This document shows, in pieces, positions 2,139 to 63,704 of a stretch of 64,000 nucleotides of DNA. The stretch is from a virus. Numbering within the stretch: position 1 is the stretch's first letter; each line of letters opens with the position of its first letter. The notes beneath the pieces are model-generated. The model saw only the letters and a program-made list of their open reading frames with translations, did not search any database and was not told the origin of the DNA. A program made the translations under genes and the position numbers. The DNA lies in IMG/VR virus record IMGVR_UViG_3300045988_057942; one strand, written 5' to 3'.

Positions 2139-2162
2139 CCATCCTCTACGGGGAGTCTACAC
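2139..2162 (+). repeat. GC-rich dispersed repeat copy (ccatcctctacggggagtctacac), intergenic, 28 nt upstream of gene 2190.
   Basis: Core CCATCCTCYACGGGGRGT. Confidence 0.9.
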
Positions 2163-2189
2163 TAAGAATTTAGTAAACTTAAAGAATAT

Positions 2190-4808
2190 ATGGAAACAAT
2201 AGAAAAAGAACTTGGTAAAGTTAGTCTTACTTGTAATGGTCAATGGAGTCCTGATAGACCTTACGATAGACTATGTATAGTTCATGATGGTTTCTATGCT
2301 AGCTATATTTCTCGTAAAGCTACTCCTGCTGGTATTCCATTACCTAATGAAGAATATTGGCAACCTATTGCTAAACTTCGAGAAGATTTAGTTATTGATT
2401 ATGAAACCTTTAAGAAAGAAATACTTGAACTTATTGCTGTTGTTCAAAGAGGGCTTAAAGCTGCTAGAATTGTAGTATCTACAATGGAAGATAGAGATGC
2501 TCTTACTTGGGAACAAATTGGAGTAGGTTGTGAAGTTTATGTTATTGAAACTAAAAAGAGTTATATACTTGATGAAATAACTCCTGTTAATAATGCTAAG
2601 AAATGGCATCTTGAGGCTGATTCTGAAATTGGTTCTAAATTTGTAGAATCTTTTAGTGGTATGTTTCCAAGAGCAATTGCAGAACGTGCTGTTGCTGATG
2701 AATTTGGTATTAATATACAAGATAATTATCTTCGTCGTAACGTAGTAGTTAATTATATGGCACAAGTACTTAAACAGTATTTTGAAGATAATGCTGTTCA
2801 AATACTTGAAGGTCAGATTACTCCTGATATGCTTAGTGAATCTGTTAAACAAATGTTTACTGCTTCTCAGATTACTAACGCTGCTGATGAAGAAGATTTA
2901 ACTGTTGTTGATAATCTACTTAAATTTGCAGATAAAGACTATAATGTAAATGATTATAGTGGAAAGGCTCGTAAATATCTTCGTAAAAATATGATTAGTG
3001 GTGTTAATACTCTTACTCAAGATATGATTAACGAGCCTAATACTATTTATATACTTCAATATGATTATTGTTTAGCTGGACAAACTATTGAACTTCCAGA
3101 TGATAGTATAATTCTTTGGAGAGGTGGTAGATTATATGATGGAGCTGTTAAACTAAATAAATGTAGACTTCTTAGTAATTATCGTCAGGAAGATATGTTT
3201 GATAAAGAAACTATATCTTTAGATGGTGATTGGGCTAAAGGTCAAATACTTTATCATCCTCTTGATTTAGGCGAAGATAATAAACAAGTTGAAATTACAG
3301 GTTGGGGTGGTTCTTATACCAATGATTTTTATTGGTTTTGGGATGGAGAAAAATGGGTAAGTATGGGTTTTGATTTATCTGTTTATCTTACTCGTGCTGA
3401 ATTTGAAGCTTTCTTAGAGAAGTTAAGAGAAGAAATGGAAAAGTTCTATGCTTGGCTTCTTGAAGAACTTAGAAAGATTAATGAACATCTTGAACTTCAT
3501 GACCAACAGATAAGTAATCTTCAACAAGAAGTTTCTAATATTAATACTAGAATAGATAATCTTATTACTGAATATAACGCTAAATTTACTGATATTTATA
3601 ATAAGATTGGAGATTTAAATAGTAGTGTAGAAGGTAGTATTAATAATCTAGAACAATATATTAATAATAAGATTGAAGAGATTCTTAATAAGATAGACCA
3701 AAGTGGTGGTAACATAAGTAATGAGTATAAACAATATTTTGAAGATAATTATGTTTCTATGTTTAAGAACATGATTAAAGCTGGTACTAATATTACTTTT
3801 GTTGAAAACTCTGATGGTACTATTACTATTAATGCTACAGGTGGTGGTTCTGGCGGCGGTGGATTAACCGAACAAGAAGTAAGAGATATTGTTAATTCTA
3901 TGCTTAATAATTATTATACTAAGTCTGAAATTAATGATATTATTGCTGGTATTGAAGGCGGTGGAGGAAGTGGTGGAGATGGCACTCATAATGTTATGTC
4001 TACTACTCAACTCGGTGAAGCTAGAACAGGTAAATATCTTACTATGAGTAAGTTTGCTGATAGTGAAACTAAACCTAGCAGACTTGATGTTGATTTTAAT
4101 ACTCTTTATACAGATATTAAAAATAAATTAGTAAATGATGGATTTGGCTCAGGCGGTAGTGGAGGAGGAACAACAGGTGGAGTAACTGCTACTCAAGTAC
4201 AAACTTGGATTGCTGCTGTTATGCCTATTGGTTCTATTATGCTTTGGGATACTACTACACCTCCAACAGGTTGGGAAATATATACTGCTGCTCAAGGACG
4301 ATTTGTTATGGGTCATATAAGTGGTGGTATTAATATTTATAATAATCCTAAACAAAATACTCTTGATTGGAGTACTGTTCTTAAAAATGTAGGTGATACT
4401 TATGACCCTGCTACTCCTGGTTTAAATATTGGAGCTTACGGTTTTTATATTGGTGGTACTGATTTACCATTACATCAACATGCAATTGCCGCTAGTTCTG
4501 GTAAATGCGGTGATGGTAATCATCATGTTGTAGTTCCTAGTAACTGGCGAGCAAATGATCATGGTAGACCTTTGGATCAAGATTGTAGAAATACTTATCC
4601 TTATGGTACTACTAAAACTAATTATTGGGATTTAAATATTAATAAAAATACCAATTGGTATATGACTGGACCTAATATTAGTAGAAATGGTGAAATGGTG
4701 TGGACACAAATTAGTACAGATAATTGGACAGGAGATTATCTTGCTATTAATAAACTATTACCTACTATTGCTTTACATTATATTAAACGTGTTTCTAATC
4801 CGTGGTAA
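2190..4808 (+). CDS. Tail fibre/spike-like protein: N-terminal domain, a domain paralogous to 11728-13413, a central coiled coil, and Gly-rich linkers (GGGSGGGG, GGGGSGGDG, GSGGSGGGTTGG).
   Basis: 872-aa ORF. Heptad-like region ~aa 400-500. Block 'NEPNTIYILQYDYCLAGQTIELP...GGRLYDGAVKLNKCRL' matches 'NEENTRYIIRYAFDLSGKTITMP...GGIIENGTIDLNKCKL' in gene 11728-13413. Confidence 0.75.
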   Translation: METIEKELGKVSLTCNGQWSPDRPYDRLCIVHDGFYASYISRKATPAGIPLPNEEYWQPIAKLREDLVIDYETFKKEILELIAVVQRGLKAARIVVSTMEDRDALTWEQIGVGCEVYVIETKKSYILDEITPVNNAKKWHLEADSEIGSKFVESFSGMFPRAIAERAVADEFGINIQDNYLRRNVVVNYMAQVLKQYFEDNAVQILEGQITPDMLSESVKQMFTASQITNAADEEDLTVVDNLLKFADKDYNVNDYSGKARKYLRKNMISGVNTLTQDMINEPNTIYILQYDYCLAGQTIELPDDSIILWRGGRLYDGAVKLNKCRLLSNYRQEDMFDKETISLDGDWAKGQILYHPLDLGEDNKQVEITGWGGSYTNDFYWFWDGEKWVSMGFDLSVYLTRAEFEAFLEKLREEMEKFYAWLLEELRKINEHLELHDQQISNLQQEVSNINTRIDNLITEYNAKFTDIYNKIGDLNSSVEGSINNLEQYINNKIEEILNKIDQSGGNISNEYKQYFEDNYVSMFKNMIKAGTNITFVENSDGTITINATGGGSGGGGLTEQEVRDIVNSMLNNYYTKSEINDIIAGIEGGGGSGGDGTHNVMSTTQLGEARTGKYLTMSKFADSETKPSRLDVDFNTLYTDIKNKLVNDGFGSGGSGGGTTGGVTATQVQTWIAAVMPIGSIMLWDTTTPPTGWEIYTAAQGRFVMGHISGGINIYNNPKQNTLDWSTVLKNVGDTYDPATPGLNIGAYGFYIGGTDLPLHQHAIAASSGKCGDGNHHVVVPSNWRANDHGRPLDQDCRNTYPYGTTKTNYWDLNINKNTNWYMTGPNISRNGEMVWTQISTDNWTGDYLAINKLLPTIALHYIKRVSNPW

Positions 4809-4810
4809 TT

Positions 4811-6904: not shown

Positions 6905-6912
6905 TATTAATT

Positions 6913-6945
6913 ATGGTGGTACTGAATAAGTACCACCATTTAAAG
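6913..6945 (+). terminator. Putative intrinsic terminator: 10-bp perfect stem (atggtggtac / gtaccaccat), 7-nt loop, then a T/A-rich tail.
   Basis: Stem-loop 9 nt after the stop of gene 4811-6904. Confidence 0.45.
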
Positions 6946-6956
6946 TTTATAAAGTT

Positions 6957-7754: not shown

Positions 7755-7757
7755 GTT

Positions 7758-10700
7758 ATGGCTATATATCAAGGAGATATTGGAATACATGATATTAAAC
7801 TTGGTAGTATAGATGTATTTGAAATATATCAAGGTTCTAAACTTGTTTATCCTGAGAATACTGAAGTTACTGTTACGTTTAAATTGAATGTTTCCGGAAC
7901 TGTTACTATTAATGGTTATACTCCTGTTATAAGTGAAAATAATACTAAATTTGTATTTACTATTCCTGTTAAGACTGATTATACTGCTAATATTACTGCT
8001 GAACATTATAAATCTCAAACTATTAGTGGTAACAGTGGTTATTTACCTATAACTCATAATGTAGAATTAGAATGGGAACAAGAATTTATATCTTATACTG
8101 TTACTTTTCCTACTGATGGAGTTAAAGTTTTATTTGATGGAATAGAAAAAGGAGTTATAACTAATGGTAAGTTAGTTGTATTAATTGATGATATAGAAGC
8201 TAAAGATAGTTATACTGTTACATTTGAAGGTAGTAAAGCTAGTACATATGATACTAGTGGATTAAAAGTAGTAGATAGTAGTATAGCTGCAACTGGTGGT
8301 AGTTATGATTTAAAACTTTCTACTAGTTCTGTTAAGACTGCTTATACACGAACTGACTATGCATCCTCCACGGGGAGTATAACCAAGGGTTCTACTTATA
8401 CTGGTTCTTGGATTGAAACTGTTGTTAATCTTACTGCTAGTTTTACTAGTTCTACTACTTTAGGTTCTATAAGTAATAATGTACTAACTATTGCTAATAA
8501 TGAATCTACTAATACTAAAAGTGGAACTTTAACTGTTATATTTACTTTAGAAAATAAACAAACTAAAGAAGTTAGTGCTGCTTTAAATCAAGCTGCTGGA
8601 GCTAAAGTTTATACTAATTGGGTATTAGATTTACAAACTGATGGAACTAGTGTTGAAGCTAAAGGTGGTACTAGAACAGTTACAGCTAATATTGCTCGTA
8701 GAACTTATAAATGGAATAATACTGGTACTGTTTATAGTGAAACTGCTACTCCTACTCTTAGTATTAGTGGTAGTGCTAGTCTTAGTGGAAATCAAATAAA
8801 ATTTACATCAAACGAGAGCGTTTCAGCCCGTTCTGCGGTACTTACTGCTAGTTATGTAGGATTATCCAAAACGATTACGATAACTCAATCAGCAGGCTCA
8901 AAAGTGTATTCAGCGTGGTCTGCATGGGCTGTTTCTATCTCGGCAAGTACGCAAACGATAGGCGCAAGTGGAGGAACATCAACAATAACTACTAGTGCTA
9001 GTCGTTCTAGAACTTGGACTTGGAATGGAGTTGGAACTACTCATACTGATACTGAAACAGGTACACCTACACTTAGTGGTAGTGCTGGTGGATTTACTTT
9101 AAGTGGTAAAACTGTTACTGCTAGTAACAATACTACAACAAATAGTCGTAGTATAACTATTACTGCTACTAGCAATAATGTTTCTAAGTCTATTACTATA
9201 ACACAATCTGCTGGTGCTAAAGTTTATGGTAATTGGTCTGCTTGGACTGTTAATATTAGTGCTGATAAAACTAGTATTGGAGCAACAGGTGGAACAGCTA
9301 CTATATCAACTAGTGCTAGTAGAACTAGAAGTTATACATGGAATGGTGTTGCCGGTTCTGGTGGTACAGAAACTGGAAATGGTACTCCAACGTTAAGTAA
9401 AGTTAGTGGAAGTGGTAATTGGACTAGTCCTAAAGTTACTTATGGAAATAATACTAGCACAAGTGGTAAATCAACTGTTATTCGTGCTACTATTGATTCA
9501 ACTACTAAAGATATAACTATTAGCCAATCTGCTGGAGCTAAACAATATAGTACTTGGTCTGCATGGACAGTTAATATTTCTAATAGTGGAAATATTGCTG
9601 CTAGTGGAGGTAGTTCAAATATAACTACTTCTGCAAGTAGAACAAGAACTTGGACGTGGAACGGAGTTAATGGAAGTGGTGGAACTGAAACAGGAACTGG
9701 AACTCCTACTCTTAGTAAAATTAGTGGTGCTGGTTCATTTGCTAGTAATAAAGTAACTTATGATAATAATACTTCTACAAGTGCTAGAAGTACAGTTATT
9801 AGAGCTACAATGGATTCTGTAACTAAAGATACTACTGTAACTCAAAATGCTGGTTCTAAAACTTATAGTAGTTGGGGAGCATGGTCTATTAGTTTAAGTG
9901 CTAATGTAACAACTATTGCTGCTGCTGGTGGAAATGCTACATTATCTACTTCTGCTACTAGAAGTCGTACTTGGCAATGGAATGGTACAGGAACAACTTA
10001 TACTGAAAATGCTAGTGGTTCTCCAACATTAAGTAAAGTTAATGGTGCTGCTTCTTTAAGTGGTTCTACTGTTAGTTATGGTAATAATACTTCTACTAGT
10101 TCTCGTAGTTCTGTATTTAGAGCAACAATAGATAGTACTACTAAAGATATAACTATTAGTCAATCTGCTGGGGCTAGAGTATATGGAAGTTGGTCTGGTT
10201 GGACTGTAAGTTGTAGTGCTAGTAATTATAAAGTTTGGGCAGGAGGTGATTCAGTAACTATTTATAGTAGTGCTTCAAGAAATAGAACTTGGACTTGGAA
10301 TGGTGTTGCAGGTTCTGGTGGCACTGAGTCTGATAATGCTACTCCTACTATTTCTGTTACAAGTGGTGTTGGAGTTTTAAGTGGTAATACTTTAACTTTT
10401 AGTAATAACACATCTCCTGATGCTAGAACAACTCGAGTTACTGCTAATTATAACGGAGTTACTGATTATTGTGATATTATGCAATATGGTGGTAATAAAG
10501 TTGCTGGAAGTTGGACATCTTGGCAAGTAACTATATCTGCTAGTCCTATGAATATTGCTGCTGCTGGCGGTAGTTCTACTATTACTTGTAATGCTGTTCG
10601 TACTAGAAATTATACTTGGAATGGGGTGGGTACTACTTATACTGAAACTGAAAATGGTAGTCCAACTTTAAGTAAATCTGGAGATGGTACATTAAGTGGT

Positions 10701-11642
10701 ACTACTAGCGGTAGTAAACTTACTTATGGTAATAGAACTACTACAACAAGTAGAAGTACAACTGTTACTGCAACTTATAATGGAGTTAGTAAATCTATTA
10801 ATATTACACAATCTGCTGGTAGTAAAATTACAGGCAAAATGACATATCATACTGATATTTATGATAGAAATTCATCTAATTATACAGATTATACTAGTTA
10901 TCCTGTAACACATGATATTGGAGGTGAACCTGTTATTTCTGGAGGTGATACAATTATTACTTATTGTAGACTTCGTAAAACACAACCATGGACTTGGAAT
11001 GGTGTTAGTGGTAGTGGCGGAACAGATACTACTTATGCTAGCGCAAAAGATGTAGCTATTGTAAGTCAATCTAACTGTACAACTATTGTTAAAGATATAG
11101 GTAGTAATAATATGATTATGTTTAGTTCTGTTGTTCCCGCTAATTTAAGTAGTAGTGCTCGTACTTGGTATTTTAATTGGAGATGGTTAGGTTCTAATAA
11201 TACTACTATCCGAAATACACAAGCCGCAAATACTTTACGTGGTAGACTTGTTATTAAAAATGATTATTTTACTAGTCAAAATATTGCATTACCTATTTAT
11301 TTAGATAGTGAAAATGTAGATTCAATATATAAAGGAGAAGCAAGTTATAATGATATTAAAAAAACTCCTATTGGTGTTTATGTATATATTCCTACTAATA
11401 TTTCTATAATGAACGCTGGTAAATTGCAATTTTGGTTTGAAAATAAAGATGGTGGTGGCAGTAAATATACTTGTACTTTAAGTAAAGTTAGTACACCTTC
11501 AAATAGTGTTTTTGTATCTAATAATAATAATATTATTACTGTTACTGCTAATACAACTACTTCTTCATTTACTATATTATGTCAATTTACTATTACTTCT
11601 AATAGTACAATATTTAATGTAAGAGTTTTAATTGAACAATGA
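7758..11642 (+). CDS. Large tail protein with ~8 tandem BACON-like / Ig-like repeats (~107 aa each).
   Basis: 1294-aa ORF. Repeat unit 'ITITQSAGAKVY..WSAWTV.ISA....IGA.GGT..I.TSASR.R.W.WNGV...' resembles the BACON domain described in crAssphage. Confidence 0.8.
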   Translation: MAIYQGDIGIHDIKLGSIDVFEIYQGSKLVYPENTEVTVTFKLNVSGTVTINGYTPVISENNTKFVFTIPVKTDYTANITAEHYKSQTISGNSGYLPITHNVELEWEQEFISYTVTFPTDGVKVLFDGIEKGVITNGKLVVLIDDIEAKDSYTVTFEGSKASTYDTSGLKVVDSSIAATGGSYDLKLSTSSVKTAYTRTDYASSTGSITKGSTYTGSWIETVVNLTASFTSSTTLGSISNNVLTIANNESTNTKSGTLTVIFTLENKQTKEVSAALNQAAGAKVYTNWVLDLQTDGTSVEAKGGTRTVTANIARRTYKWNNTGTVYSETATPTLSISGSASLSGNQIKFTSNESVSARSAVLTASYVGLSKTITITQSAGSKVYSAWSAWAVSISASTQTIGASGGTSTITTSASRSRTWTWNGVGTTHTDTETGTPTLSGSAGGFTLSGKTVTASNNTTTNSRSITITATSNNVSKSITITQSAGAKVYGNWSAWTVNISADKTSIGATGGTATISTSASRTRSYTWNGVAGSGGTETGNGTPTLSKVSGSGNWTSPKVTYGNNTSTSGKSTVIRATIDSTTKDITISQSAGAKQYSTWSAWTVNISNSGNIAASGGSSNITTSASRTRTWTWNGVNGSGGTETGTGTPTLSKISGAGSFASNKVTYDNNTSTSARSTVIRATMDSVTKDTTVTQNAGSKTYSSWGAWSISLSANVTTIAAAGGNATLSTSATRSRTWQWNGTGTTYTENASGSPTLSKVNGAASLSGSTVSYGNNTSTSSRSSVFRATIDSTTKDITISQSAGARVYGSWSGWTVSCSASNYKVWAGGDSVTIYSSASRNRTWTWNGVAGSGGTESDNATPTISVTSGVGVLSGNTLTFSNNTSPDARTTRVTANYNGVTDYCDIMQYGGNKVAGSWTSWQVTISASPMNIAAAGGSSTITCNAVRTRNYTWNGVGTTYTETENGSPTLSKSGDGTLSGTTSGSKLTYGNRTTTTSRSTTVTATYNGVSKSINITQSAGSKITGKMTYHTDIYDRNSSNYTDYTSYPVTHDIGGEPVISGGDTIITYCRLRKTQPWTWNGVSGSGGTDTTYASAKDVAIVSQSNCTTIVKDIGSNNMIMFSSVVPANLSSSARTWYFNWRWLGSNNTTIRNTQAANTLRGRLVIKNDYFTSQNIALPIYLDSENVDSIYKGEASYNDIKKTPIGVYVYIPTNISIMNAGKLQFWFENKDGGGSKYTCTLSKVSTPSNSVFVSNNNNIITVTANTTTSSFTILCQFTITSNSTIFNVRVLIEQ
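8362..8381 (+). repeat. GC-rich repeat copy (catcctccacggggagtata), in-frame in 7758-11642 (ASSTGSIT).
   Basis: Core match. Confidence 0.85.
8590..10830 (+). repeat. About 8 tandem ~320-bp coding repeats (BACON-like domains).
   Basis: 'caatctgctgg(t/a)gctaaagt.tat...tgg' recurs at 8886, 9202, 9523, 9841, 10160, 10481 and 10807. Confidence 0.75.
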
Positions 11643-11727: not shown

Positions 11728-13413
11728 ATGAACAATAAACAACTATATGAAAAACTAGGTCAGAATAGTTATGATAAAGTATTTCCTATTACTTATCTTC
11801 AAAATATTCTTGACAAAGATACAAATAATGATTTAACTGTTGTTCTTTCTAGGTTTAATCATTTATGGATTCCATATCAAGGAACTAGAGTTAATACTCG
11901 TAAAGCTGTTCCTGCTATTTTTAGACGTAATAGTCTTACTATAAGTTATTATGACGCAGAACATAATATATCTGTAACTGAAAGTTATATAGGTAGTAAT
12001 ATGCAAGCTGGTGTTGAAGCTAGTTGGGTTTCTGATGATAATTGGACTAAAATTCTTAGTGAAAAATATCTTGAAGAATCTGGTGCTAAAATTCCTATTG
12101 CTGATGGTACTATTGATTGGGATATGCTTAACGAAGCTCTTAAGCAAATGATTGCTGCTGATGGTAAAGTTACTATTATTAATTATCCTGATGAAGAGGA
12201 TATTACTCTTCGATTAACTCCTGGTTGTTGTAATGTAAATCGTCTTAGTCTTAAAGATAGACATTATGAGCCTGAATATAAAAGCGGTAAAGGATATAAA
12301 ATAATTCGCAGGGTTTTACTCCCCGTGGAGGATGATGCTAGTAATGCAGAACAGCTTTTATTTGATGGTTTTCTTGATGATACTTATTGTGAACAATATG
12401 GCCAAATAATTCTTAATACTGATAAGTATGAAGTTATTAAAACAGATTTAGGTAATACTGCTGGTATTTATTATGATACTTATCATAAATTATTTGTTCT
12501 TAGAGTTAAGACTGTTCATGATGGAATTGGTTTTTATAATTATTATACTAGATGGACGATTGTAGAATCTACTGATAGAGTTCATCCTCTACGGGGGGTC
12601 AACACTCCTGTTTATGGAAATAGTGAAGATTATAATATTTATAATACTTGTCTTTCTGATGAACGTCCAAGACTTGGTATTATATATGTTAATTCAGTAG
12701 ATAATATTAAATATTATTTTAATGAAGAAAATCTAGTTCAAGTTAAGAATAATATTTATCTTAATTATAAAGCTGTTCTTACTCAAGATATGGTTAACGA
12801 AGAAAATACTCGTTATATTATTCGTTATGCTTTTGATTTAAGTGGTAAAACTATTACAATGCCTGCTGGATGTGAACTTGTATTTGAAGGTGGTATTATT
12901 GAAAATGGTACTATTGATTTAAATAAATGTAAACTTACAGGTATGGTTGGTGAAGAATCTGAATATCTTCCTAATGTAACTTGTAGTAATTGGGCTGTTG
13001 GTCAAATTGAATATCGTAATGGAAAGATTTGTTATTGGAATGGTAATGAATGGAGAGTAATGGGAGATACTTCTTCATTTGATAGTTATACTAAACAAGA
13101 AATTAATAACTTGCTTAAAAATTATTATACTAAATCTGAAACTTATAATAAAGAAGAAGTTAATAATTTGCTTAATGGATATGTTACTAATAGTACATTT
13201 AATAACTTTAAAGAAGAAATAAATCAAACTATTACTAATAGTGTTAATCTTGATAAGATTCAAAAAGCTATTAATGATGGTTGTGGAGTTAATATGACTA
13301 TGCCTAGTGCAAATAATAATAAACTTAGTCTTCCAATTTGGACAGGAACTGCTACCCAATATGCAACTATTACCCCAGTTGCTGGAATGACTTATAATAT
13401 TGTTGATGAATAA
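11728..13413 (+). CDS. Tail fibre-like protein. Carries two GC-rich repeat copies in-frame and shares a central domain with 2190-4808 and a C-terminal motif with 6957-7754.
   Basis: 561-aa ORF. Paralogous blocks as described. Peptides 'LLPVEDDA' and 'HPLRGVNTP' come from the repeat. Confidence 0.75.
   Translation: MNNKQLYEKLGQNSYDKVFPITYLQNILDKDTNNDLTVVLSRFNHLWIPYQGTRVNTRKAVPAIFRRNSLTISYYDAEHNISVTESYIGSNMQAGVEASWVSDDNWTKILSEKYLEESGAKIPIADGTIDWDMLNEALKQMIAADGKVTIINYPDEEDITLRLTPGCCNVNRLSLKDRHYEPEYKSGKGYKIIRRVLLPVEDDASNAEQLLFDGFLDDTYCEQYGQIILNTDKYEVIKTDLGNTAGIYYDTYHKLFVLRVKTVHDGIGFYNYYTRWTIVESTDRVHPLRGVNTPVYGNSEDYNIYNTCLSDERPRLGIIYVNSVDNIKYYFNEENLVQVKNNIYLNYKAVLTQDMVNEENTRYIIRYAFDLSGKTITMPAGCELVFEGGIIENGTIDLNKCKLTGMVGEESEYLPNVTCSNWAVGQIEYRNGKICYWNGNEWRVMGDTSSFDSYTKQEINNLLKNYYTKSETYNKEEVNNLLNGYVTNSTFNNFKEEINQTITNSVNLDKIQKAINDGCGVNMTMPSANNNKLSLPIWTGTATQYATITPVAGMTYNIVDE
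12318..12335 (-). repeat. GC-rich repeat copy, reverse orientation (actccccgtggaggatga), in-frame in 11728-13413 (LPVEDD).
   Basis: Core reverse complement. Confidence 0.85.
12583..12600 (+). repeat. GC-rich repeat copy (catcctctacggggggtc), in-frame in 11728-13413 (HPLRGV).
   Basis: Core match. Confidence 0.85.
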
Positions 13414-17369: not shown

Positions 17370-17392
17370 CCATCCTCTACGGGGAGTATAGC
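17370..17392 (+). repeat. GC-rich repeat copy (ccatcctctacggggagtatagc), intergenic, flanked by imperfect 10-bp inverted repeats ttagctagg / cctagctga.
   Basis: Core match. Confidence 0.9.
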
Positions 17393-17527
17393 TTGCCGAA
17401 TTTGGCTAGTTTTAAGCCTAGCTGATTAGTTATACACGATTGAATAAAAGTCTTACTGTAAGCCTAAAAAGTGGCTCTATGGACGTACATAAATATTTAC
17501 AATATTAAAATTTAAAATAGTAAAGTT

Positions 17528-49700: not shown

Positions 49701-52700
49701 TAGAAAATATAAATATACTAAAGGTAATGGTATACCTTATGTTGGTATTATTCGTTCTGCTGAAGATGAATTAAGAATTTATCGTGCTGATTTCTATAAT
49801 TATCTTACAGGTAATAAATCTAAGAGCGAAGAAGAAATTAATGTAGGAGAAGCTATTAATAAAATACTTGAAAAATATTTTGATAATGCTACTAGAACTC
49901 TTAATACTGCTGATATTAGTCAAGAAGATTTAGAACAACTCAAGACTGGTTTTGAAGTATTTAATGAAATTACTAGAGGAGAAAAGAGTGTTGATAAAGC
50001 TAAAGCAAAACGTGTTGCTGAATTTATTGAAAGTGAATGTGATGTTACTTATAATTGGAAGCAATATGAACTTGATAAAAATAGAGCTTTTGCTAAAGGT
50101 AAAAAGTATTATGATAAATGGCTAGAAGTATTTAGTGAACAAGTTGAAGAAAATGGAACTATTGCAGAAAGACCTAATCGAACTATTTATGGTATTATTA
50201 AACCTAAAGATTTAGATAAATGGACTGATATTGATAAAACTGCTGCAATTAATATTCTTCAAAAAAGAACTAGAGAAACTACTACTCAATATTATTATAT
50301 AAAAGAAAAAGAAGTTCTTGATAAATATGGTATTGATAGTCCAGAATATAAACAATGGTATAGAGATAATCATTATTTTGACCCATATACTCGTACTATT
50401 AAACCTATTCGTATTTGGACTACTATGCAAATGATTAAAGATGATGGTTCAGCTGTTGTTGGTAATTATGAACCACGTATTAATCAAATGCATATTACTC
50501 CTAAAGAAGAACTTATTAATCCAGAATATAGTAGTTTTGTTAATAAGTATAAAGTAGGAACAGGATATGATAATCCTAATTATACTAATCTTAATGAGTA
50601 TCAACTTGAACTTATGAATAAAGTAAATGAACTTATGAAAAAGTATTGTTTTACTAATAGTAATAAGCGATATGTTGATATGGGTTATCTTCCAGCTTTG
50701 CCTAAATCTAAAGATATGACTGTTAAAGATTATTTTGAACAAGCTCTTAGTTTTCTTGGTTGGACAGCCAATGTTCCTAATAATACTAGTTGGAGAAATA
50801 ATGAAGATTTAACTTTTGATAAAGATTATGATATTCCTAATCCTAGATTAGTTCAGTTAGTTAATAAAGATACTCAACAGTTGCCTACTATACCTAAATT
50901 TAAAGAGCCTAATGAAAGTGATGAAGAATTTAGTAAACGTAAAGCTGCTGCAATTAAAGCTAGAGATGAAATTATTGAAAAGAATAATAAAATTCATAAT
51001 GATATTCTTAATCGTAATTGGGAAGAAGTATTTAATAGTTTCTTAATTGAAAGTAATAGATATAATGCTATTAAAACAGTTAAAAATCTTCTTTATACTG
51101 CTGACCAAATTATTACTAGTAATACTGCTTACGATATAAATTATAAAGGTAGTATAAGTGAAAATAGAGAAGCTAGTGCTGGTGGTGAAATTGAATATAA
51201 ACAAGAAAAACAAACTAGAACTAGTGAACATCTTAGAAGTTTTATTCGTCGTCTTGTATTTGAACAATATAAAGATAATAAAATTCCTAATCTAGTTAAA
51301 CTTGGTTCTCTTGCTCAAAACATTGCTGGTAGTAAATATATGATGATGAACATTACTGGTGGTATTGCTAACGTTCTTACTGGTTCTAGTAATATATTTA
51401 TGGAACGAGCTGCTGGTGAATATATTAATCTTAAAGATTGGGAAGCTGGTAAATCTGAATGGATTAAAGGAACTGTTAGTTATATGGCTAATATGTATAG
51501 TGAAAATAGTAGTACTCTTCAAGATGCGATTATTAAACTTAGTCATGTAGTTGATTTTGATAGAGTAACTGAAGTTAGTACTGCTGAAGGTCTTAAAGAA
51601 AATATTCGTAGAGTTCGTGGATTACTATTTAGTCCTCAATCTGTTGGTGAACATTATATGCAAAATGTTATGCTATTTGCTATGCTTAAATCTCATAGAC
51701 TTGTTGATAATGGTAGAGGTGGTTATGATATAATGAGTAAAGAAATGTATCATCGTAAAGCTGAACAAGATGCTCTTATGTCTGTAATAAATACTCCCCG
51801 TGGAGGAGAGAACCAAGCTCTACTTGAACAATTCAATAAGTTCATGGATGAAGCTAAAGCTGATAATAAAAAACGAGCTAAATATAATCTATTTAAAGCT
51901 AATCCTATATTTGATTTTGTTAAGACTTATCTTAATGAAGAACAACAAAGAGAATATATAGCTAAACGTAAAGAACTTATTAAGAATATTGATAAAGAGT
52001 TTGCTAAACTTCCAGATATTTATAATCAGTTTGAACTTAAAGATGGAATTGCTCAAATAAAATCTGATAGTAAACTTACTCTTAAAGAATATGCTAAATT
52101 TATTGATAAAGTTCGTGAAGTAAATAAGAAAGTTCATGGTGTTTATGATAAACTTGGTTCTGCTAATATAGAACAACATTGGTGGGGTGGTACGGTTATG
52201 CAATATCATAAACATCTTTATCCTGGTTTTAAGAAACGTTATCGTTGGAACGGTTATTATAATGAAACTCTAGGTACTATTGAAAAAGGTAGTTATACTA
52301 GTCTTTATGATTATTTGACTATTCCATTTAAAGAAACTAACGTAGGAGAAATTAATAATGTAAGTGATGTTCTTAAAGCATTCCAAACTTATGGTAAGAA
52401 TTTACTTTCATTTGCTGTTAATTTCAAACTTAATTATGAACTTCTTCCTGAACATGAAAAAGCAAATATTAGACGTAATTTAGGTGATTTACTTTATGTA
52501 GGTGCTGCTATTATTGGAGCAATTGCTATAACTGGTATTGGAGGTGATGACGATGAAAGTATTATGTATAATCTTATGCTTTATCATGCTGACCGTCTTG
52601 CTTCTGAAGCTGCATCATTTACTCCATTTGGAGCTTATGCTGAAGGTAAAAAGCTATGGTCTAGTCCTGTTGCTATTGGACAAACTATTAATGACTTACT

Positions 52701-52964: not shown

Positions 52965-53010
52965 AGGGCTTGCCTATGGTATCACTACCTAGACAAGCCC
53001 TATTTGTTTT
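52965..53010. terminator. Bidirectional rho-independent terminator between convergent modules: stem agggcttg / caagccct, followed by atttgtttt on the '+' strand and a T-run on the '-' strand.
   Basis: Seen directly. Located between the stop of 40726-52938 (+) and the stop of 53023-53577 (-). Confidence 0.75.
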
Positions 53011-53022
53011 AACATTAATAAC

Positions 53023-53577
53023 TCAATCATCAAGAATAATACGTTTTTTATCATCAAGAAAACCAACCATACCATCATATTTATCATGATAAATCTTAAT
53101 AAAATCAGTCATACTACCTCTAAATATATAATTATGATTAACAACATAAGTAGATTTTTTAGTAGTATTAATAATTACTTGTTCGTTATAAAGTTCATTT
53201 AAAGCAATATAAAAAGTTTTTGAATCAATATGAGCATAATTCGTTATATCACTTTCAGTAAAAGTAATTTTATTACTACACCATTTAATATTATTACAAA
53301 TATAACTAATAATAGCAATACTACCTTTATTAAGTTTAATAAGTTTAGAACTTAATTCATTACCAAATGTAACATATTCACGATTAGTAATAGTTTTCTT
53401 TGTAAGTTTAAAAACAGTATTAAGTGTTGCTAGACTATCAGTAATTTCTCTATCCTCTGTTGTAACTTCAATATTATACACAGTAGGAGCAATATTTTTA
53501 GCAACTTCATTAGCTCTTTTAGAATATATATCTCTAACCTTTTTAAGAGCTTTACTATCAAATGTAACTCTAGTCAT
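53023..53577 (-). CDS. Hypothetical protein, 184 aa. First gene of the '-'-strand module.
   Basis: ORF. Confidence 0.7.
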   Translation of the reverse strand: MTRVTFDSKALKKVRDIYSKRANEVAKNIAPTVYNIEVTTEDREITDSLATLNTVFKLTKKTITNREYVTFGNELSSKLIKLNKGSIAIISYICNNIKWCSNKITFTESDITNYAHIDSKTFYIALNELYNEQVIINTTKKSTYVVNHNYIFRGSMTDFIKIYHDKYDGMVGFLDDKKRIILDD

Positions 53578-53726
53578 AAAAACAATATTATTTAGATTAT
53601 CAGTATGACAAATATAAATATTATGTAGGAAAAAACGGAATGATTAATGTTAAAAAAGTGTAACTATCTTCCAATTTTCGGAAGTAAATATTTTTGTAAT
53701 TAATTGATAATCAAGATATTACAAGC

Positions 53727-53754
53727 GTTCTTCTATCTATATAGATAGAAGAAC
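53727..53754. promoter_or_regulatory. Perfect 28-bp palindrome gTTCTTCTATCTATATAGATAGAAGAAc. Candidate operator.
   Basis: Seen directly in the intergenic region between 53577 and 53787. Confidence 0.5.
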
Positions 53755-53786
53755 AGATAGAATCAATATTTACTATTAGCAATATC

Positions 53787-53969
53787 TTAATTAAAACCAT
53801 CATCATTATTACCAATAACACACATAAGAATAACAAAAACTATAATACCAATAACAAATAGTTTTCCACTATACTTATCCATAGCTTCACTATCACTAAT
53901 ATTATTAGCAACTGCCAATAGTTTAACACCACCAAATATAATTCCAAGAAGAACAATAAATGCAACCAT
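53787..53969 (-). CDS. Small membrane protein, 60 aa, with two hydrophobic helices.
   Basis: MVAFIVLLGIIFGGVKLLAV...LFVIGIIVFVILMCVIG. Confidence 0.5.
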   Translation of the reverse strand: MVAFIVLLGIIFGGVKLLAVANNISDSEAMDKYSGKLFVIGIIVFVILMCVIGNNDDGFN

Positions 53970-54081
53970 AATTATAATATATTTAAGTTTAACAATAAGA
54001 TAAAAATAAACCTCAGTAGTAAGACTAGCTTATCTACCGAGGTTTCAGTCATGCCAACGACTATAAGTTTAAGGATTAGTA

Positions 54082-54123
54082 GAACGCTCCGCTTCGCTAC
54101 GCTCAACTCCCCGTGGAGGATGG
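54082..54123 (-). repeat. Extended reverse copy (gaacgctccgcttcgctacgctcaactccccgtggaggatgg). Left arm of the intergenic inverted pair.
   Basis: rc = ccatcctccacggggagt + tgagcgtagcgaagcggagcgttc. Confidence 0.9.
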
Positions 54124-54200
54124 AATAGACTAGTATTCATTCAATCAATATAATCATTATTATTAATAACTATACTAATATTACTAGCATAACTACTATT

Positions 54201-54252
54201 CCATCCTCTACGGGGAGTATAGCGAAGAGTGCGTAGCACTCGTAGCGGTTCC
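54201..54252 (+). repeat. Extended forward copy (ccatcctctacggggagtatagcgaagagtgcgtagcactcgtagcggttcc). Right arm of the inverted pair. The pair encloses a 77-bp AT-rich core (MITE-like unit 54082-54252).
   Basis: Seen directly. Confidence 0.9.
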
Positions 54253-54335
54253 AAGCTAATCATTAAATTTAATAAAGCCAGCTCTATTAGAGCCAGCTTT
54301 ACGTATAACATATAAACCATTAGCATTAATACTAT

Positions 54336-56600: not shown

Positions 56601-57260
56601 AGCTGCGCCGCCTGTTCCTTTTCCAAATCCTTTGTTTCCACGTTCAGTTTCACCAAGTTCTTCAATAGAATTAACTTCTTTCCAAGTAATACGTTGAGCA
56701 CTATTAATAATTAATTGTGCACATCTATCTTCTCCATTACAATCATAAGGAGGAATAGAAACTTTAGCAAGAATATTAGTCATTGTAGTTCTAACACTAT
56801 TAAGTTTAAGTCTAGAATTACCTACCATACTATCAGGTAAATGCATATGTTGTCTAAGTTTATCAACTACTTCAACAAGGTCAGATACAGCATGAATTAA
56901 ATCTCTAGAAGTACGATTCTTAAAAATAATAAGAAGTTCTCCACGATAACCCCAATCAAGAGTACCAGGTGTATTTGGCATATAAAAATCAGATTTAGTA
57001 AGATTACTTCTAGGACGGAGAGCCATTTCGTTAGGATTACCATCATCATCATTACCAATAGCAAATGCTAAACCAGTATGATATATAAATCTATCTTTAG
57101 TATTATCATATTCACAGTGTATAGGATAAATATCCATACAAGCATCACCTTCTTTACCATAAACAGGTAAAATAGGTTGAACATTACAATACTGTTCTAC
57201 ATCTACAACATCTCCACTAAGAAGTTGAATTTCTTTTAGCTTAAATACTTTTATTTCCAT
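56592..57260 (-). CDS. dut: dUTP diphosphatase (dUTPase) with an insertion.
   Basis: Motifs 'LRPRSNLTKS', 'DWGYRGEL', 'RCAQLII' and C-terminal 'ERGNKGFGKGTGG' correspond to dUTPase motifs 2-5. Confidence 0.65.
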   Translation of the reverse strand: MEIKVFKLKEIQLLSGDVVDVEQYCNVQPILPVYGKEGDACMDIYPIHCEYDNTKDRFIYHTGLAFAIGNDDDGNPNEMALRPRSNLTKSDFYMPNTPGTLDWGYRGELLIIFKNRTSRDLIHAVSDLVEVVDKLRQHMHLPDSMVGNSRLKLNSVRTTMTNILAKVSIPPYDCNGEDRCAQLIINSAQRITWKEVNSIEELGETERGNKGFGKGTGGAAKA

Positions 57261-57279
57261 ATATAATTAAATTATTAAA

Positions 57280-58341: not shown

Positions 58342-58523
58342 TAATTATAAGTTTTAATATATTCAATAATACGTTCAATATCTCTAATAGCTTGACTGTT
58401 AGTAACTCCATAGGTATCTATATACCATTTAATTACTTCTCTTACTTTATCTTCTAGTTCCATAATTAACAAGATTAGTAGTGTTGACTCCCCGTAGAGG
58501 ATGGAATGCACATCATCCTCCAC
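58341..58523 (-). CDS. Small hypothetical protein. The track start is GTG inside the GC-rich hairpin; an internal ATG (MELEDKV..., ~58460) is the likelier start.
   Basis: ORF. Its N-terminus overlaps repeat copy 58514-58533. Confidence 0.4.
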   Translation of the reverse strand: MEDDVHSILYGESTLLILLIMELEDKVREVIKWYIDTYGVTNSQAIRDIERIIEYIKTYN

Positions 58524-58533
58524 GGGGAGTATA
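58487..58533. repeat. Inverted pair of GC-rich repeat cores (actccccgtagaggatgg - aatgcacat - catcctccacggggagtata). An 18-bp stem hairpin with 1 mismatch between two '-'-strand genes.
   Basis: Seen directly. Confidence 0.9.
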
Positions 58534-58539
58534 ATTTAG

Positions 58540-59573: not shown

Positions 59574-59600
59574 AACTTTAATATTTAAATAGTTAATAAT

Positions 59601-59882
59601 TTATTTATTATTTCTCATTTCTTCATCTTTAACTACTTTAAGAACAACAATATTACATAAAAGACCATAACAAAGATAATTGTTAAATACACAATTAGGA
59701 CAAGTTTCAATATGTTTATTTTTAACATATTTACATAGAAATGTTACTTCTTTATCATCTTTAATTCTAATTGTAGTATAAAGAAATTCTTCACCATCAT
59801 TTAAATCATCAGTGAAATTAGTACCACTATAATTTTCAATATGAAAGTGTTTAAGTTTATCAATCTCTGAAGTCATATCCAA
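59601..59882 (-). CDS. Hypothetical Cys-containing protein, 93 aa.
   Basis: ORF. 'CPNCVFNNYLCYGLLC'. Confidence 0.5.
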   Translation of the reverse strand: MDMTSEIDKLKHFHIENYSGTNFTDDLNDGEEFLYTTIRIKDDKEVTFLCKYVKNKHIETCPNCVFNNYLCYGLLCNIVVLKVVKDEEMRNNK

Positions 59883-60726: not shown

Positions 60727-61096
60727 CTTCTTGATTATTATAAAAATCTTTAACTACATTTCCAAATATACTATAAAAATGTTCTTTAGGTATAATATTA
60801 ATAGGCTGTATAGAATCAAGCTCTTTAAAAAATTCTTTAAGACCTTTATTTCTAATCCATAAAGTATCATAAGTAGCAGTTATATAATTATCTTTATCCA
60901 TGTCACAAGCTATAAAGCAAGTTTCACTATCAAGCTTATCTATACATTCTTTACATACAATAGCCTCAGCTATTTGTTTACTCTTACTAGCATCTTCTTC
61001 AACAGAATTTCCAAGTGGAGTATAACCAATAATTTTACCACAACATATACAAACTCTAGCAAGAGCATTTATACCAAAAATAGGATGTAATTTCAT
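60713..61096 (-). CDS. Zn-finger-like Cys-rich protein, 127 aa.
   Basis: 'CICCGK...CKEC...CFIAC'. Confidence 0.55.
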   Translation of the reverse strand: MKLHPIFGINALARVCICCGKIIGYTPLGNSVEEDASKSKQIAEAIVCKECIDKLDSETCFIACDMDKDNYITATYDTLWIRNKGLKEFFKELDSIQPINIIPKEHFYSIFGNVVKDFYNNQEDENN

Positions 61097-61839: not shown

Positions 61840-61975
61840 AATAATTTGTTTTTGTTTATCAAGACAAATATAAAAATATAATAGGAATTTACTAGTAATA
61901 ATGATGCTGAATTTAATGTTAAATATCATGGTGAGAATGACGCATTTTAAGGCTTGCCATGACACGCAAATCTTA

Positions 61976-62042
61976 TCGTGATAGATTAATCATTCTGATA
62001 TATAAAATTGAATACAGGCAAAAAGAATCATGTCTACGAGCG
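61976..62042 (-). promoter_or_regulatory. Conserved ~66-bp non-coding element, copy B. Candidate promoter/operator for the dNMP kinase gene.
   Basis: Aligns with 56058-56123 at about 56 of 66 positions. Confidence 0.55.
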
Positions 62043-62065
62043 TATCATATACAATTTTACACCCA

Positions 62066-62109
62066 TGTAAAACAGAAAAGCCTAGCACACTATCTTATGT
62101 ACTAGGCTT
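62066..62109 (-). terminator. Terminator for gene 62114-62497 ('-' strand): stem aagcctag(c)ac / gt(a)ctaggctt followed by cttttctgttt on the '-' strand.
   Basis: Seen directly. Confidence 0.55.
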
Positions 62110-62113
62110 CACC

Positions 62114-62497
62114 TTATTCAATATCTATATGATAAATAATACAAAAACTATTACGTTCTTCTACAAACTTAACATTAATATTAAAATCATCTTTAGACAT
62201 AACAAAAGCATTACGCAATCTTGTATCGAGAAGTCTAATAACTATATTAGGAATATATAACTTAAATCCAGTATTAGCATCTCGAATAATAGGAACACTA
62301 TTATTAATTCTATTATCATTATACAAAATCACATAAAGTTCATTACTTTTAGTTATATCATTATATCTAACAGCAAAATTATAACTTTTAGCATCATAAT
62401 CAGTAAATAGAATAATAGATTTATAATAACAACTAAAATAAGATTTAGTTCTATCAAAATTATTATTCTTAATTACATTATAATCTAGTATCTCCAT
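62114..62497 (-). CDS. Hypothetical protein, 127 aa.
   Basis: ORF. Confidence 0.6.
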   Translation of the reverse strand: MEILDYNVIKNNNFDRTKSYFSCYYKSIILFTDYDAKSYNFAVRYNDITKSNELYVILYNDNRINNSVPIIRDANTGFKLYIPNIVIRLLDTRLRNAFVMSKDDFNINVKFVEERNSFCIIYHIDIE

Positions 62498-63704
62498 TTA
62501 TAACAACAGTTTTAATATGAAATGGAACTCTAGAAACACCACTCCGTTCACCATATTCTATATGAACAGTTCTACCAATATAAGATTGAGAATCAAATAA
62601 AACTTCTTGCTGAACAATATGACTAGTGCTTAAACGAGTTTCAAACTTTTCATTATTAATATCATTTTTACAAAGAAGAATAGGTAAATCACGTTTCTTT
62701 TCTTTATAAATATCAAGAATGATAAAATCTCCCTCAGCAGAATCTTTAAACTTCTCCATATAATTAGCTCTACGTCTACCATATTGATAATCAGTTTCAG
62801 CATTACGAAGTATAAGACCTTCAAATCCTAAATTAATAAAATGATTTCTAGCGTCAATAGCTTCATTATCATTAGTAATATATCCACTAGGAAGAATAAT
62901 CAATCGTTCTTTATTATTATAATGTTCTTTAATATTATTAAAGCAAGTAGGAAGCTTAATATGATAACGATATGTATTTCTATGAGCTTGATTACCTTCC
63001 ATCATAATATCATAACACCAAAACTGAAGAAGTTTATTTTCAACACAATTAGCATCTTTAACAAAATGATTAATTTGATTAACAGTATAACCGGGAAGAT
63101 AAACTTCACCATCAAGTGCTGCAAATCCATTAATCATATCGTCGATAATATTTGTATTAATAGTAGCAAGCAGATAATCTTCAAGATAGCCAAGAGTATG
63201 CCAAGTAAGACCTTCACGACTTTGGAAACGAAGCCTAACAGGTTTAAACATATCATTTTGAGTATAAGCAGTAACAATACAACGCAGACCATTAATCTTA
63301 TACTGACCATACATACAACTGACTTTTTTCCAAACATTACCATTATACGTTTTAGCAAGCATTGGAAGTAAAAGATTACTGTTTCCATTACTAAGGTCTT
63401 TAGGTAGATAAGTATTTAGAAAATTAAATAGAGTATCATTATCTCCATCCTCCACGGGGGGTAAACCCTGCATATCACAAAGTTCATTAAGATATGTATA
63501 TCCTTGTTTAATCTTATCATTATATCTACTTTCAAGTTCTTTTTGACCATCTTTTTGAGTAACAGCATAAACTTCTTTACGAATATTACCTCGAACAAGA
63601 CCATAAAAAACAGTGATACTATTAGTACCACTGTCAAGTTCAGCCCACCAAACAGTAGGCACACCATTATTATTTCTACGATAAAGTTTATTCATTATGT
63701 TCAC
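62478..63704 (-). CDS. ATP-dependent polynucleotide ligase (DNA/RNA ligase-like nucleotidyltransferase).
   Basis: Motif I-like 'KINGLR', motif III/IV-like 'ALDGEVYLPGY' and 'EGLILR', motif V-like 'KFKDSAEGDFIILDI'. Confidence 0.5.
   Translation of the reverse strand: MNIMNKLYRRNNNGVPTVWWAELDSGTNSITVFYGLVRGNIRKEVYAVTQKDGQKELESRYNDKIKQGYTYLNELCDMQGLPPVEDGDNDTLFNFLNTYLPKDLSNGNSNLLLPMLAKTYNGNVWKKVSCMYGQYKINGLRCIVTAYTQNDMFKPVRLRFQSREGLTWHTLGYLEDYLLATINTNIIDDMINGFAALDGEVYLPGYTVNQINHFVKDANCVENKLLQFWCYDIMMEGNQAHRNTYRYHIKLPTCFNNIKEHYNNKERLIILPSGYITNDNEAIDARNHFINLGFEGLILRNAETDYQYGRRRANYMEKFKDSAEGDFIILDIYKEKKRDLPILLCKNDINNEKFETRLSTSHIVQQEVLFDSQSYIGRTVHIEYGERSGVSRVPFHIKTVVINGDTRL
63444..63461 (+). repeat. 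GC-rich repeat copy (ccatcctccacggggggt), in-frame in ligase gene on the opposite strand (LPPVEDG).
   Basis: Core match. Confidence 0.9.

Follow-up and report, generated by a model that had tools for sequence, protein, structure and literature searches.

The stretch of viral DNA analysed here (IMG/VR record IMGVR_UViG_3300045988_057942; 64,000 nucleotides, read 5' to 3' on one strand and hereafter called the window) raises the question of why a GC-rich word of 18 nucleotides (nt), CCATCCTCYACGGGGRGT, recurs along an otherwise AT-rich phage genome, mostly inside genes. An earlier note on this DNA had described the word as a dispersed repeat and had compared it with mobile elements that invade coding regions in frame. 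We found instead that the copies are probably polar cis-acting signals that are selected in place and do not move. The best reading overall, which we favour tentatively and at somewhat less than an even chance, is an ancient, orientation-specific recognition array that acts on DNA.

A dispersed GC-rich motif in crAssphage

The window is from Carjivirus communis, the crAssphage prototype (BK010471), with ~96% identity over 12 kb, and corresponded to the reverse complement of approximately 17.6-81.1 kb of that reference, with 7.0% of the aligned positions differing between the two. At two or fewer mismatches, 21 matches to CCATCCTCYACGGGGRGT were found over positions 2139-63462, 12 on the plus strand and nine on the minus strand. 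None of 100 dinucleotide-preserving shuffles of the window gave any match, so that zero copies are expected from composition and the over-representation proposed in the earlier note is real. That note had listed at least 19 clear and two degenerate copies, with 12 forward, nine reverse and 15 inside long open reading frames (ORFs); we recovered the same total, strand counts and ORF count, the other six of the 21 copies being intergenic. The intragenic copies lie in the genes for the BACON protein, the tail protein gp63, the Cys-rich gp50, gp47, gp45, the giant RNA polymerase (RNAP) gp44 and the ligase, and the peptides that they encode (PSSTGG, HPLRGV, ILYGG, (L/P)PVED and TPRGG) are as described before. 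The GC content of the window ranges from 24 to 35%, and each motif forms a GC-rich island in a genome of 29% GC. The 21 window sites corresponded one-to-one to sites in the 97-kb reference, in which 33 copies at three or fewer mismatches, or 31 copies of a stricter core, are spread genome-wide.

Oriented flanks and a position-wise consensus revealed that the conserved element is rather longer than 18 nt, approximately TCCATCCTCYACGGGGRGTMWAMCC, and that strict constraint is confined to motif positions 4-18, Y and R excepted. The two sub-families that had been proposed reflect a real tendency, as GGGGGGT is followed by C in seven of nine copies and GGGGAGT by AT in seven of 12, but they follow no strict rule. 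In the same way, the (AGCGR)n tail reported at 37347-37371 exists, but the tails of the long forms are better described as WAGCG, a hairpin of 4-7 bp with a GNA or GNRA loop, and then AGCGG(G/T)TC. The tail hairpins comprise GAGTGC-GTA-GCACTC, GGCAC-GTA-GTGCC, GAGAGC-GAA-GCTC and GGAC-GAAA-GTCC, and in one strain the right arm of the 54201 pair contains a compensated stem, GAGTAC/GTACTC. GNA triloops closed by a C-G pair are unusually stable in DNA.

Conservation in place and across genera

The window and the reference were both picked independently of the motif. Motif positions 4-18, excluding Y9 and R16, showed 0 differences in 273 comparisons, whereas flanks of 40 nt on either side differed at 7.4% of positions (P = 8e-10). 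Y and R differed in four of 42 cases, and motif positions 1-3 in eight of 63. A larger set of strain haplotypes, which was ascertained through exact motif matches and is treated as supporting only, gave 0.8% differing positions in the core, 5-6% in the flanks and 11.6% at Y. The core evolves approximately seven-fold or more slower than its flanks, and the motif is a nucleotide word under purifying selection in place.

A scan of viral contigs revealed the 16-mer in many crAssphage strains and also in contigs that were just 65-73% identical to the reference. The core CCTYYAYGGGG was the most frequent GC-rich k-mer in the complete genomes of cr11_1, cr3_1 and crAss002, and each lineage had its own dialect: TCCTCTACGGGGGGTCTC in Delmidovirus cr11_1 (29 copies), GTTCCTYTACGGGGGARC in Diorhovirus cr3_1 (28 copies), CTCCTYTAYGGGGGAA in Jahgtovirus crAss002 (25 copies) and CCTYTACAGGGGAGTTTACA in Rudgehvirus (15 copies in 41 kb). 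There are ~25-31 copies per genome, with a near-even strand split. The Rudgehvirus dialect was read from Rudgehvirus jaberico (OQ198719; cultured on Bacteroides cellulosilyticus), where it corresponds to a G to A change at the last loop position and where five close inverted pairs were present. No such motif was found in the first 50 kb of crAss001 (Steigviridae). In cr127_1 (NC_055886, Crevaviridae) we observed a different element of ~45 nt, (TATAAT)GGCCACAAGGGCGAGAGGTGTTCCGAAAT(T)CG, with 10 copies in 83 kb that were mostly intergenic and included three inverted pairs; this element may be a unit of promoter plus leader, or else it may correspond to the motif of the Intestiviridae.

Site sharing between genera was scored by local protein alignments around each intragenic copy. 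Among the reference sites spanned by an alignment, six of 11 in cr11_1, seven of nine in cr3_1 and three of seven in crAss002 were matched in both position and orientation by a copy (43-78%, against a chance expectation of a few per cent). The sites common across genera include those in PolB, SNF2, primase, ligase, RNAP, gp47, gp73 and gp75 and both sites in gp50. In all four genera, the primase site is found ~10 codons upstream of a conserved IGV(V/I)NIP; two genera read it as ILYGG or FLYGG and two as PLRG. At the second site in gp50, the peptide is TPRGG in crAssphage and SPVED in cr11_1. As shared sites are read in different frames, the conserved object is a DNA (or RNA) word and not a peptide. 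The comparison with orthologues in distant relatives that the earlier note had put forward gives a divided answer: the same sites are kept, but the peptide is not always, and the frame may differ. Frame use is biased towards SSTGG in sense and P(P/L)VE(D/E) in antisense copies, and no antisense copy uses the frame in which TAG would occur. Lineage-specific insertion, also suggested earlier, describes a minority of sites in indels of 4-11 amino acids (aa), such as RNAP 51793 and one in gp73, but most of the alignable sites, or nearly half of them, are common to other genera; the sites in indels indicate that gain and loss occur and that turnover is slow. By sequence comparison, the array appears to be ancient and common to the family Intestiviridae, and not a set of recent insertions.

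These results bear on the proposal in the earlier note of a recent in-frame invasion, in which a selfish mobile mini-element copies itself into coding DNA in the manner of Rickettsia palindromic elements (RPEs), the solo ends of MITEs (transposable elements of miniature size with inverted repeats) or yeast mitochondrial GC clusters. Like such elements, the copies are GC-rich islands in an AT-rich genome that lie in frame and add short extra peptides. The few lineage-specific sites in short indels (RNAP 51793 and gp73), the hairpin cassettes that vary by strain at reference 95861 and the inverted arrangement of close copies, which recalls terminal repeats, would also suit a mobile origin. However, RPEs, MITEs and GC clusters are mobile, polymorphic and decaying and often have duplicated targets, whereas the array is fixed, orthologous, selected and evenly spaced. 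Among the relatives, only one of 32 well-formed reference sites was absent, in a single contig, and the degenerate 3447 copy fell below threshold in four of nine alignments; many sites are orthologous across genera and subfamilies. Target-site duplications, a possibility raised in the earlier note, were not seen, as flanking k-mers were not duplicated beyond chance at any choice of boundary. A dead insertion would decay, and neutral decay of the copies is contradicted by a core that stayed unchanged next to diverging flanks. An even spacing is not expected of transposition either, and no transposase-like gene, RAYT-like and Y1 transposases included, was found among the proteins scanned in a non-exhaustive scan. 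The array departs from RPEs, MITEs and GC clusters in every defining test that we made; the mobile-element explanation is largely refuted, and we regard it as very improbable. The DNA between intragenic close inverted pairs was ordinary coding sequence, and no inversion of intragenic pairs was detected among the relatives examined, with only the 58487-58530 palindrome appearing flipped.

Other origins were also considered. A recombination hot-spot that drives mosaicism, as had been suggested, does not agree with the 44 divergence breakpoints between the window and the reference, as only one of the 21 copies lay within 60 nt of a breakpoint compared with 1.7 expected. In the 82-89% relatives, the 24-aa indel of gp50 lies at the N-terminus and has nothing to do with the motif, and it was rejected as a motif insertion. 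A host repeat origin was rejected as well, since no Bacteroidales repeat family was present among the at least 120 bacterial-genome matches listed; these comprised at least 99 single matches in GC-rich genomes (median GC 0.65), and 18 of the at least 21 low-GC loci were crAssphage DNA, the listed matches as a whole being either chance matches or crAssphage DNA. Contigs 94-98% identical to crAssphage occurred in assemblies of Chitinophaga silvisoli (two loci) and Atlantibacter subterraneus (one locus) and in a metagenome-assembled genome labelled 'uncultured Mycoplasma sp.' (four loci), and such contigs in assemblies labelled bacterial most likely represent contamination or mis-binning. The resemblance of the motif to a T7-type promoter and to the 16S '341F' sequence was judged coincidental.

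Spacing, hairpin potential and the proposed reader

The distribution of the copies was then related to genes and strands. In the reference, 12 of the 33 sites fall in the 6.3% of the genome that is non-coding, an approximately six-fold enrichment (P = 4e-7), and the 21 intragenic copies are divided ~50:50 between sense and antisense. The coefficient of variation (CV) of the per-strand gaps was 0.31-0.58 in seven of eight strand sets, compared with ~0.9 for random placement; the four genomes share orthologous sites, and their statistics are therefore not independent. The plus series of the window consists of 12 sites with gaps of 3.2-7.8 kb (CV 0.23), and none of 20000 random sets was as regular. 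The best series had a maximum gap of 8.4 kb for 18 sites, which was matched by none of 50000 random sets. Same-orientation neighbours were at least ~2 kb apart, with one exception at 437 bp, and opposite-orientation neighbours came as close as 27-82 bp. Adjacent copies less than 500 bp apart formed 17 inverted pairs and one direct pair in the four genomes, and orientations tended to alternate (combined z = 3.4). The regular series persisted through a switch in gene direction. Between the Y/R state and the sense or antisense position of a copy, a hand count gave a weak, non-significant trend.

Thirteen invariant nucleotides within lineage-specific flanks point to sequence-specific recognition, and the lineage dialects of CCTYYAYGGGG suggest a co-evolving, probably phage-encoded, factor that reads the motif. 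Taken together with selection in place on a word of at least 13 nt, the per-strand spacing and the indifference to gene orientation, this drifting reader favours a polar DNA signal read by the phage. From this pattern we infer a protein reader, an action on DNA and a process of replication or repair. Action on DNA rather than on RNA is most likely, and the earlier suggestion of a site for a DNA-binding or nicking protein is fully compatible with, and close to, this explanation. The factor would bind each DNA copy in a polar way, so that the copies on one physical strand would serve one direction of a DNA transaction and those on the other strand the opposite direction. On each strand, the solitary copies, which recur every 3-8 kb, could be loading or re-start sites for a primosome, a helicase or recombination-repair, and intragenic copies would survive only in frames that give harmless, linker-like peptides. 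Near each of the two RepL genes, inverted long forms (reference 28074/28169 and 95742/95861) surround AT-rich spacers, of 77 and 101 bp, respectively, and the second of these pairs (95742-95878) lies within the region in which an origin has been predicted (PMC10983915). Such inverted pairs next to RepL genes and the predicted origin may be bidirectional loading sites. This specific mechanism of replication or repair loading is a possibility that we consider unlikely rather than likely.

More broadly, and with a little less assurance than we attach to a DNA-acting array as such, Intestiviridae, and perhaps other Crassvirales with different motifs, may carry a previously unrecognised genome-wide 'self' signal, an orientation-specific word of 14-18 nt that recurs regularly on each strand, runs through coding genes in any frame that they tolerate and is read by a lineage-specific phage factor. 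Such a signal would correspond, in a virus, to Chi or uptake sequences and would govern replication, repair, protection or silencing. On present sequence evidence, the array would belong among dispersed genomic recognition-sequence arrays, any function being a proposal beyond that description. No description of the array was found in the full-text literature on the motif strings or on crAssphage repeats, motifs, promoters or MITEs.

In its distribution, the array is closest to the bacterial DNA uptake sequences, namely the uptake signal sequences (USS) of Pasteurellaceae and the DNA uptake sequences (DUS) of Neisseriaceae, a likeness of pattern and not of membership. Lineage-specific dialects are known for USS and DUS. 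Each is a short, non-palindromic and hugely over-represented motif that occurs in similar numbers in both orientations and more evenly than random, with intergenic dyad pairs, many intragenic copies, a frame bias and characteristic peptides (PMC2817400, PMC1939737). They arise in place by mutation and recombination and not by copying and insertion (PMC2817400, PMC1939737). The crAssphage array is likewise over-represented, non-palindromic, present in both orientations and evenly spaced, with dyad pairs, frame bias and dialects. In contrast to USS and DUS, which have a density of ~1 per kb, the array has ~0.3 copies per kb and its regularity is per orientation. USS and DUS are read by the machinery with which a naturally competent cell takes up DNA; such a step almost certainly does not apply to a phage, for which both the reader and the process must be others.

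Strand-specific and orientation-dependent signals are also represented by Chi and by the single-strand initiation (ssi) sites and single-strand origins (sso) of plasmids and single-stranded DNA (ssDNA) phages, and the array might be the phage counterpart of ssi sites or of Chi-like 'self' signals. The origin of RSF1010 contains an inverted pair of ssi sites. The TAGCG of the long-form tails resembles, as we take it, the CS-6 box of sso, and the tails hold mini-hairpins of the GCGAAGC type with GNA loops. Signals of the ssi and sso kind are defined by a stable ssDNA hairpin that a primase or RNA polymerase recognises. In the array, the long-form tails have hairpins with GNA or GNRA loops and a compensatory change, and the core hairpin is weak as DNA (-1 to -2.5 kcal/mol). 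No ssi or Chi system is known to us in which a motif of 14-18 nt occurs ~30 times along the genome of a phage. In a narrower form of this idea, the motif would be a true Chi-like signal that tames a helicase-nuclease arriving from DNA ends, or the consensus of localised single-strand nicks, as known in phages T5, phiKMV and tf with a consensus of 10-20 nt. A protective signal of the Chi type predicts the pattern observed, in which the two strands are covered evenly and per orientation and the best series lacks large gaps (maximum 8.4 kb); the Gam-like, RecT and PD-(D/E)XK nuclease proteins that the phage encodes also agree with it. We nevertheless consider it improbable, as known Chi sequences have 5-8 nt and are host-specific, whereas here at least 13 nt are constrained and differ by phage lineage, and no Bacteroidales chromosome was present among the bacterial-genome matches listed.

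The closest phage precedents are operator arrays. Mycobacteriophage L5 (Cluster A) has ~30 asymmetric 13-bp stoperators, all oriented alike with respect to transcription and located for the most part in short gaps between genes, and the phage-plasmid P1 has dispersed 17-bp C1 operators that also control its RepL replicon and can form inverted pairs. Such sites are tied to promoters or to short intergenic gaps, and their consensus is lineage-specific and tracks the cognate repressor. An operator or stoperator-like array, with repressor or silencer sites that shut down transcription genome-wide in a plasmid-like carrier state, would account for ~30 dispersed, asymmetric copies of 14-18 bp, for dialects through co-evolution of repressor and operator, for the intergenic enrichment and for the pairs adjoining both RepL genes, and a carrier, phage-plasmid lifestyle has been reported for crAssphage (PMC10983915). 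Unlike the co-oriented, intergenic stoperators of L5, however, two thirds of the copies are in ORFs and their orientation is ~50:50 per gene block. A non-polar binder of double-stranded DNA would not yield strand-wise spacing in which close inverted pairs are tolerated. No repressor emerged from the proteins scanned: no DNA-binding domain was found in 19 proteins with Pfam, nor in nine of those with PHROGs, most of them having no match at all. We consider this explanation quite unlikely, somewhat less so than the Chi-like or nick-site proposal.

The strongest rival explanation is a hairpin element in RNA, which would act in 3'-end formation or stability, in processing or termination, or as a binding site for an RNA-binding protein on transcripts. 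Its stem would have 5-8 bp, with one conserved G.U pair, and its tetraloop would be of the C(UACG)G type; antisense-sense pairs would give long intercistronic hairpins. The motif strand indeed contains a core hairpin, UCCUC-UACG-GGGGA, whose stem is extended by flanking pairs in some lineages. RNA folding gave -7.1 kcal/mol for crAssphage, -12 kcal/mol for cr3_1 (z = -5.3, with 0 of 200 shuffles as good) and -5.6 kcal/mol for crAss002, and the complementary strand folded poorly under RNA parameters. At 94 sites from five lineages, three pairs were invariant, including a U.G pair; the closing pair was C-G or U.G at all 94 sites, the next pair out was U-A or U.G in 89%, and pair 4-19 covaried (AU, UA, UG and CG). 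All variable positions in the five lineages were in the loop or compatible with wobble pairing. The covariation score was 0.225 compared with 0.179 for shuffled alignments (0 of 500 as high) and exceeded that of all slid registers. The stem pattern would also fit an imperfect dyad for a dimeric protein, save for the many wobble combinations. The intergenic enrichment is consistent with an RNA element, as is the placement of the solitary intergenic copies, which are mostly sense and lie 6-24 nt past a stop or 19-34 nt before the next ATG; each antisense intergenic copy is followed by a sense copy. The C(UUCG)G hairpins of T4 and the repetitive extragenic palindromic (REP) sequences with their hairpin-forming doublets (REPIN) share with the array a small, very stable and recurrent hairpin with a UNCG-type tetraloop, intergenic copies just downstream of genes and inverted doublets. 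The DUS dyads that serve as terminators would be another comparable case.

Those hairpins, however, are extragenic and sense, whereas the array is mostly intragenic and half antisense. Approximately half of the intragenic copies are antisense and equally well conserved across genera (ligase, SNF2, RNAP and gp50), and for these the hairpin strand would be a putative antisense transcript. The three central stem pairs are invariant and do not covary, which is more typical of sequence recognition, and the spacing tracks the physical strand and not gene direction. No U-tracts follow the hairpins, and intrinsic terminators were rejected on this ground. Searching the whole window against Rfam 15 gave no match at the gathering score; in permissive mode, there were only sub-threshold, generic hairpin matches to miRNA precursor models at the 54100-54224 pair, a weak precursor-like signal that would count in favour of RNA. 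On balance, the RNA reading seems unlikely, though less so than any of the other alternatives.

Several observations weigh against an array that acts on DNA. As ssDNA, the core hairpin is marginal, whereas as RNA it is good (-5.6 to -12 kcal/mol, with a UACG tetraloop and on the motif strand only), a difference that favours the RNA reading, and the sense copies near stops and starts have a transcript-related look. Across genomes, the effect on minimum gaps was seen more consistently than that on maximum gaps, and the per-strand regularity could in part result from selection against close direct repeats, which are prone to deletion. To our knowledge, there is no precedent for a 14-18 nt signal in genome-wide lagging-strand priming. 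A cognate factor was not identified, the family-restricted candidates gp19, gp22, gp23 and gp84-86 having no Pfam or PHROG match. RepL was considered and rejected, since it is absent from cr3_1 and crAss002 and cannot be the reader.

Among the known viruses of the human gut, Carjivirus communis is the most abundant; work on how it replicates and persists is ongoing, and the proposal of a plasmid-like carrier state is a recent one. A signal with 13 invariant nucleotides that keeps its positions across genera and overrides synonymous drift and frame marks a process of such importance that ~30 genomic places are constrained, among them places in the genes for the polymerase, primase, ligase and virion RNA polymerase. 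The motif is a precise experimental handle, and the cultivable crAss002 and Rudgehvirus carry dialects of their own. The array may identify a new trans-acting factor among the proteins without assigned function, its dialects may serve as lineage markers, and the motif itself may serve as a highly conserved diagnostic target. In annotation, the short Pro/Ser/Thr/Gly or Pro-Val-Glu-Asp peptides should not be counted as protein motifs.

Individual copies and mosaic structure of the window

The first copy (2139-2156, plus strand) is intergenic and sense; the upstream stop precedes it by 13 nt and the ATG at 2190 follows it by 34 nt. It is orthologous to the reference site 78926 (minus strand). The BACON-domain protein (ORF 7758-11642) contains a sense copy at 8361-8378 (plus) that reads SSTGS; within its gene, positions 8865-10829 hold internal repeats of ~65% identity, and tandem BACON repeats are already described in literature that PMC10983915 cites. 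In gp63 (ORF 11728-13413), an antisense copy at 12318-12335 (minus, LPVED) is the inverted partner of a sense copy at 12582-12599 (plus, HPLRGV), which is the sole site found missing in a relative, where the sequence is 9 nt shorter. The sense copy at 17370-17387 (plus) is intergenic and is followed by a variant long tail at 17388-17429.

The sense long form in gp50 (23884-23937, plus; PSSTGGQAEDESPER) is common to cr11_1 and cr3_1 and is made up of the motif (23884-23901), CAAGCG, the hairpin GAGGAC-GAAA-GTCC and GGAGCG. Its inverted partner, an antisense copy at 24097-24114 (minus), reads TPRGG, and the cr11_1 ortholog of this partner is in the other frame (SPVED). The same GAGGAC-GAAA-GTCC cassette as in gp50 was observed upstream of RepL at reference 95861, where four strain loci (one of them at position 45863 of its contig) carry either this hairpin or GAGAGC-GAA-GCTC, depending on the strain; this suggests exchange of hairpin cassettes between copies. 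In gp47 (ORF 29913-32159), a sense copy at 30870-30887 (plus, PSSTGG), common to cr3_1, is paired with an inverted antisense partner at 31314-31331 (minus). The RNAP-associated protein gp45 has a sense long form at 37329-37371 (plus), in which the motif is followed by ATAGCGGAGCGAAGCGAAGCGGTTC with GCGAAGC mini-hairpin units, and an antisense copy at 39605-39622 (minus) that reads PPVED. In crAss002 gp32 (near position 47839), the motif is followed by GAGCGAAGCGA/AACGAGGAGCGAAGCGACGAGG, which resembles the (AGCGR)n tail of gp45; given its similar relative position in the protein, this tail may also be ancient.

Five copies were found in the giant RNAP gp44 (ORF 40726-52938). Sense copies lie on the plus strand at 43190-43207 (ILYGG) and 46435-46452 (PSSTGG), and antisense copies lie on the minus strand at 45333-45350 (LPVED, common to cr11_1), 47242-47259 (degenerate, CAATCCTCTAAGGGGAGT) and 51793-51810 (TPRGG), the last within a segment of 4-7 aa that is absent from the three other genera. 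Downstream, two inverted long forms flank a 77-bp AT-rich spacer (54124-54200). The left arm (54073-54123, minus) consists of the motif at 54106-54123 and a tail at 54073-54105, and the RepL gene (53023-53577) has its start codon ~500 bp away from it; the right arm (54201-54261, plus) consists of the motif, ATAGCG, the hairpin GAGTGC-GTA-GCACTC and GTAGCGGTTCC. The arrangement of inverted long forms and AT-rich spacer at 54073-54261 looks origin-like.

Another close inverted pair, with an 8-bp spacer, is formed by the copies at 58487-58504 (minus) and 58513-58530 (plus), between the Gam-like gene and the next gene. In this palindrome with arms of 18 bp, the inner portion appears flipped relative to most strains and to the reference; the arm TCATCCTCCACGGGGAGT lies on the other side, and the spacer is a different one. 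The last copy (63445-63462, plus) is antisense in the ATP-dependent DNA ligase (ORF 62478-63704, minus strand), reads PPVED and is common to cr11_1 and cr3_1.

The genome is strongly mosaic, with 0.2-35% divergence per 500 bp between the window and the reference. A 1.6-kb segment at 20032-21609, with two ORFs (20328-21278, 316 aa, and 21275-21625, 116 aa), has no reference counterpart, and in the reference its flanks adjoin at ~61060-61068. The segment represents a strain-specific change among the tail genes, either an insertion or a replacement. The RepL region at 53001-54000 is 20-35% diverged from the reference, while both sides are diverged by 1.6-2%, and this looks like allelic replacement of the replication initiator. 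At 56952-56961, the window is without ~1 kb of the reference (24467-25490), which there comprises a group I intron with an HNH endonuclease ORF in the dUTPase gene, and the dUTPase allele of the window is therefore intron-less.

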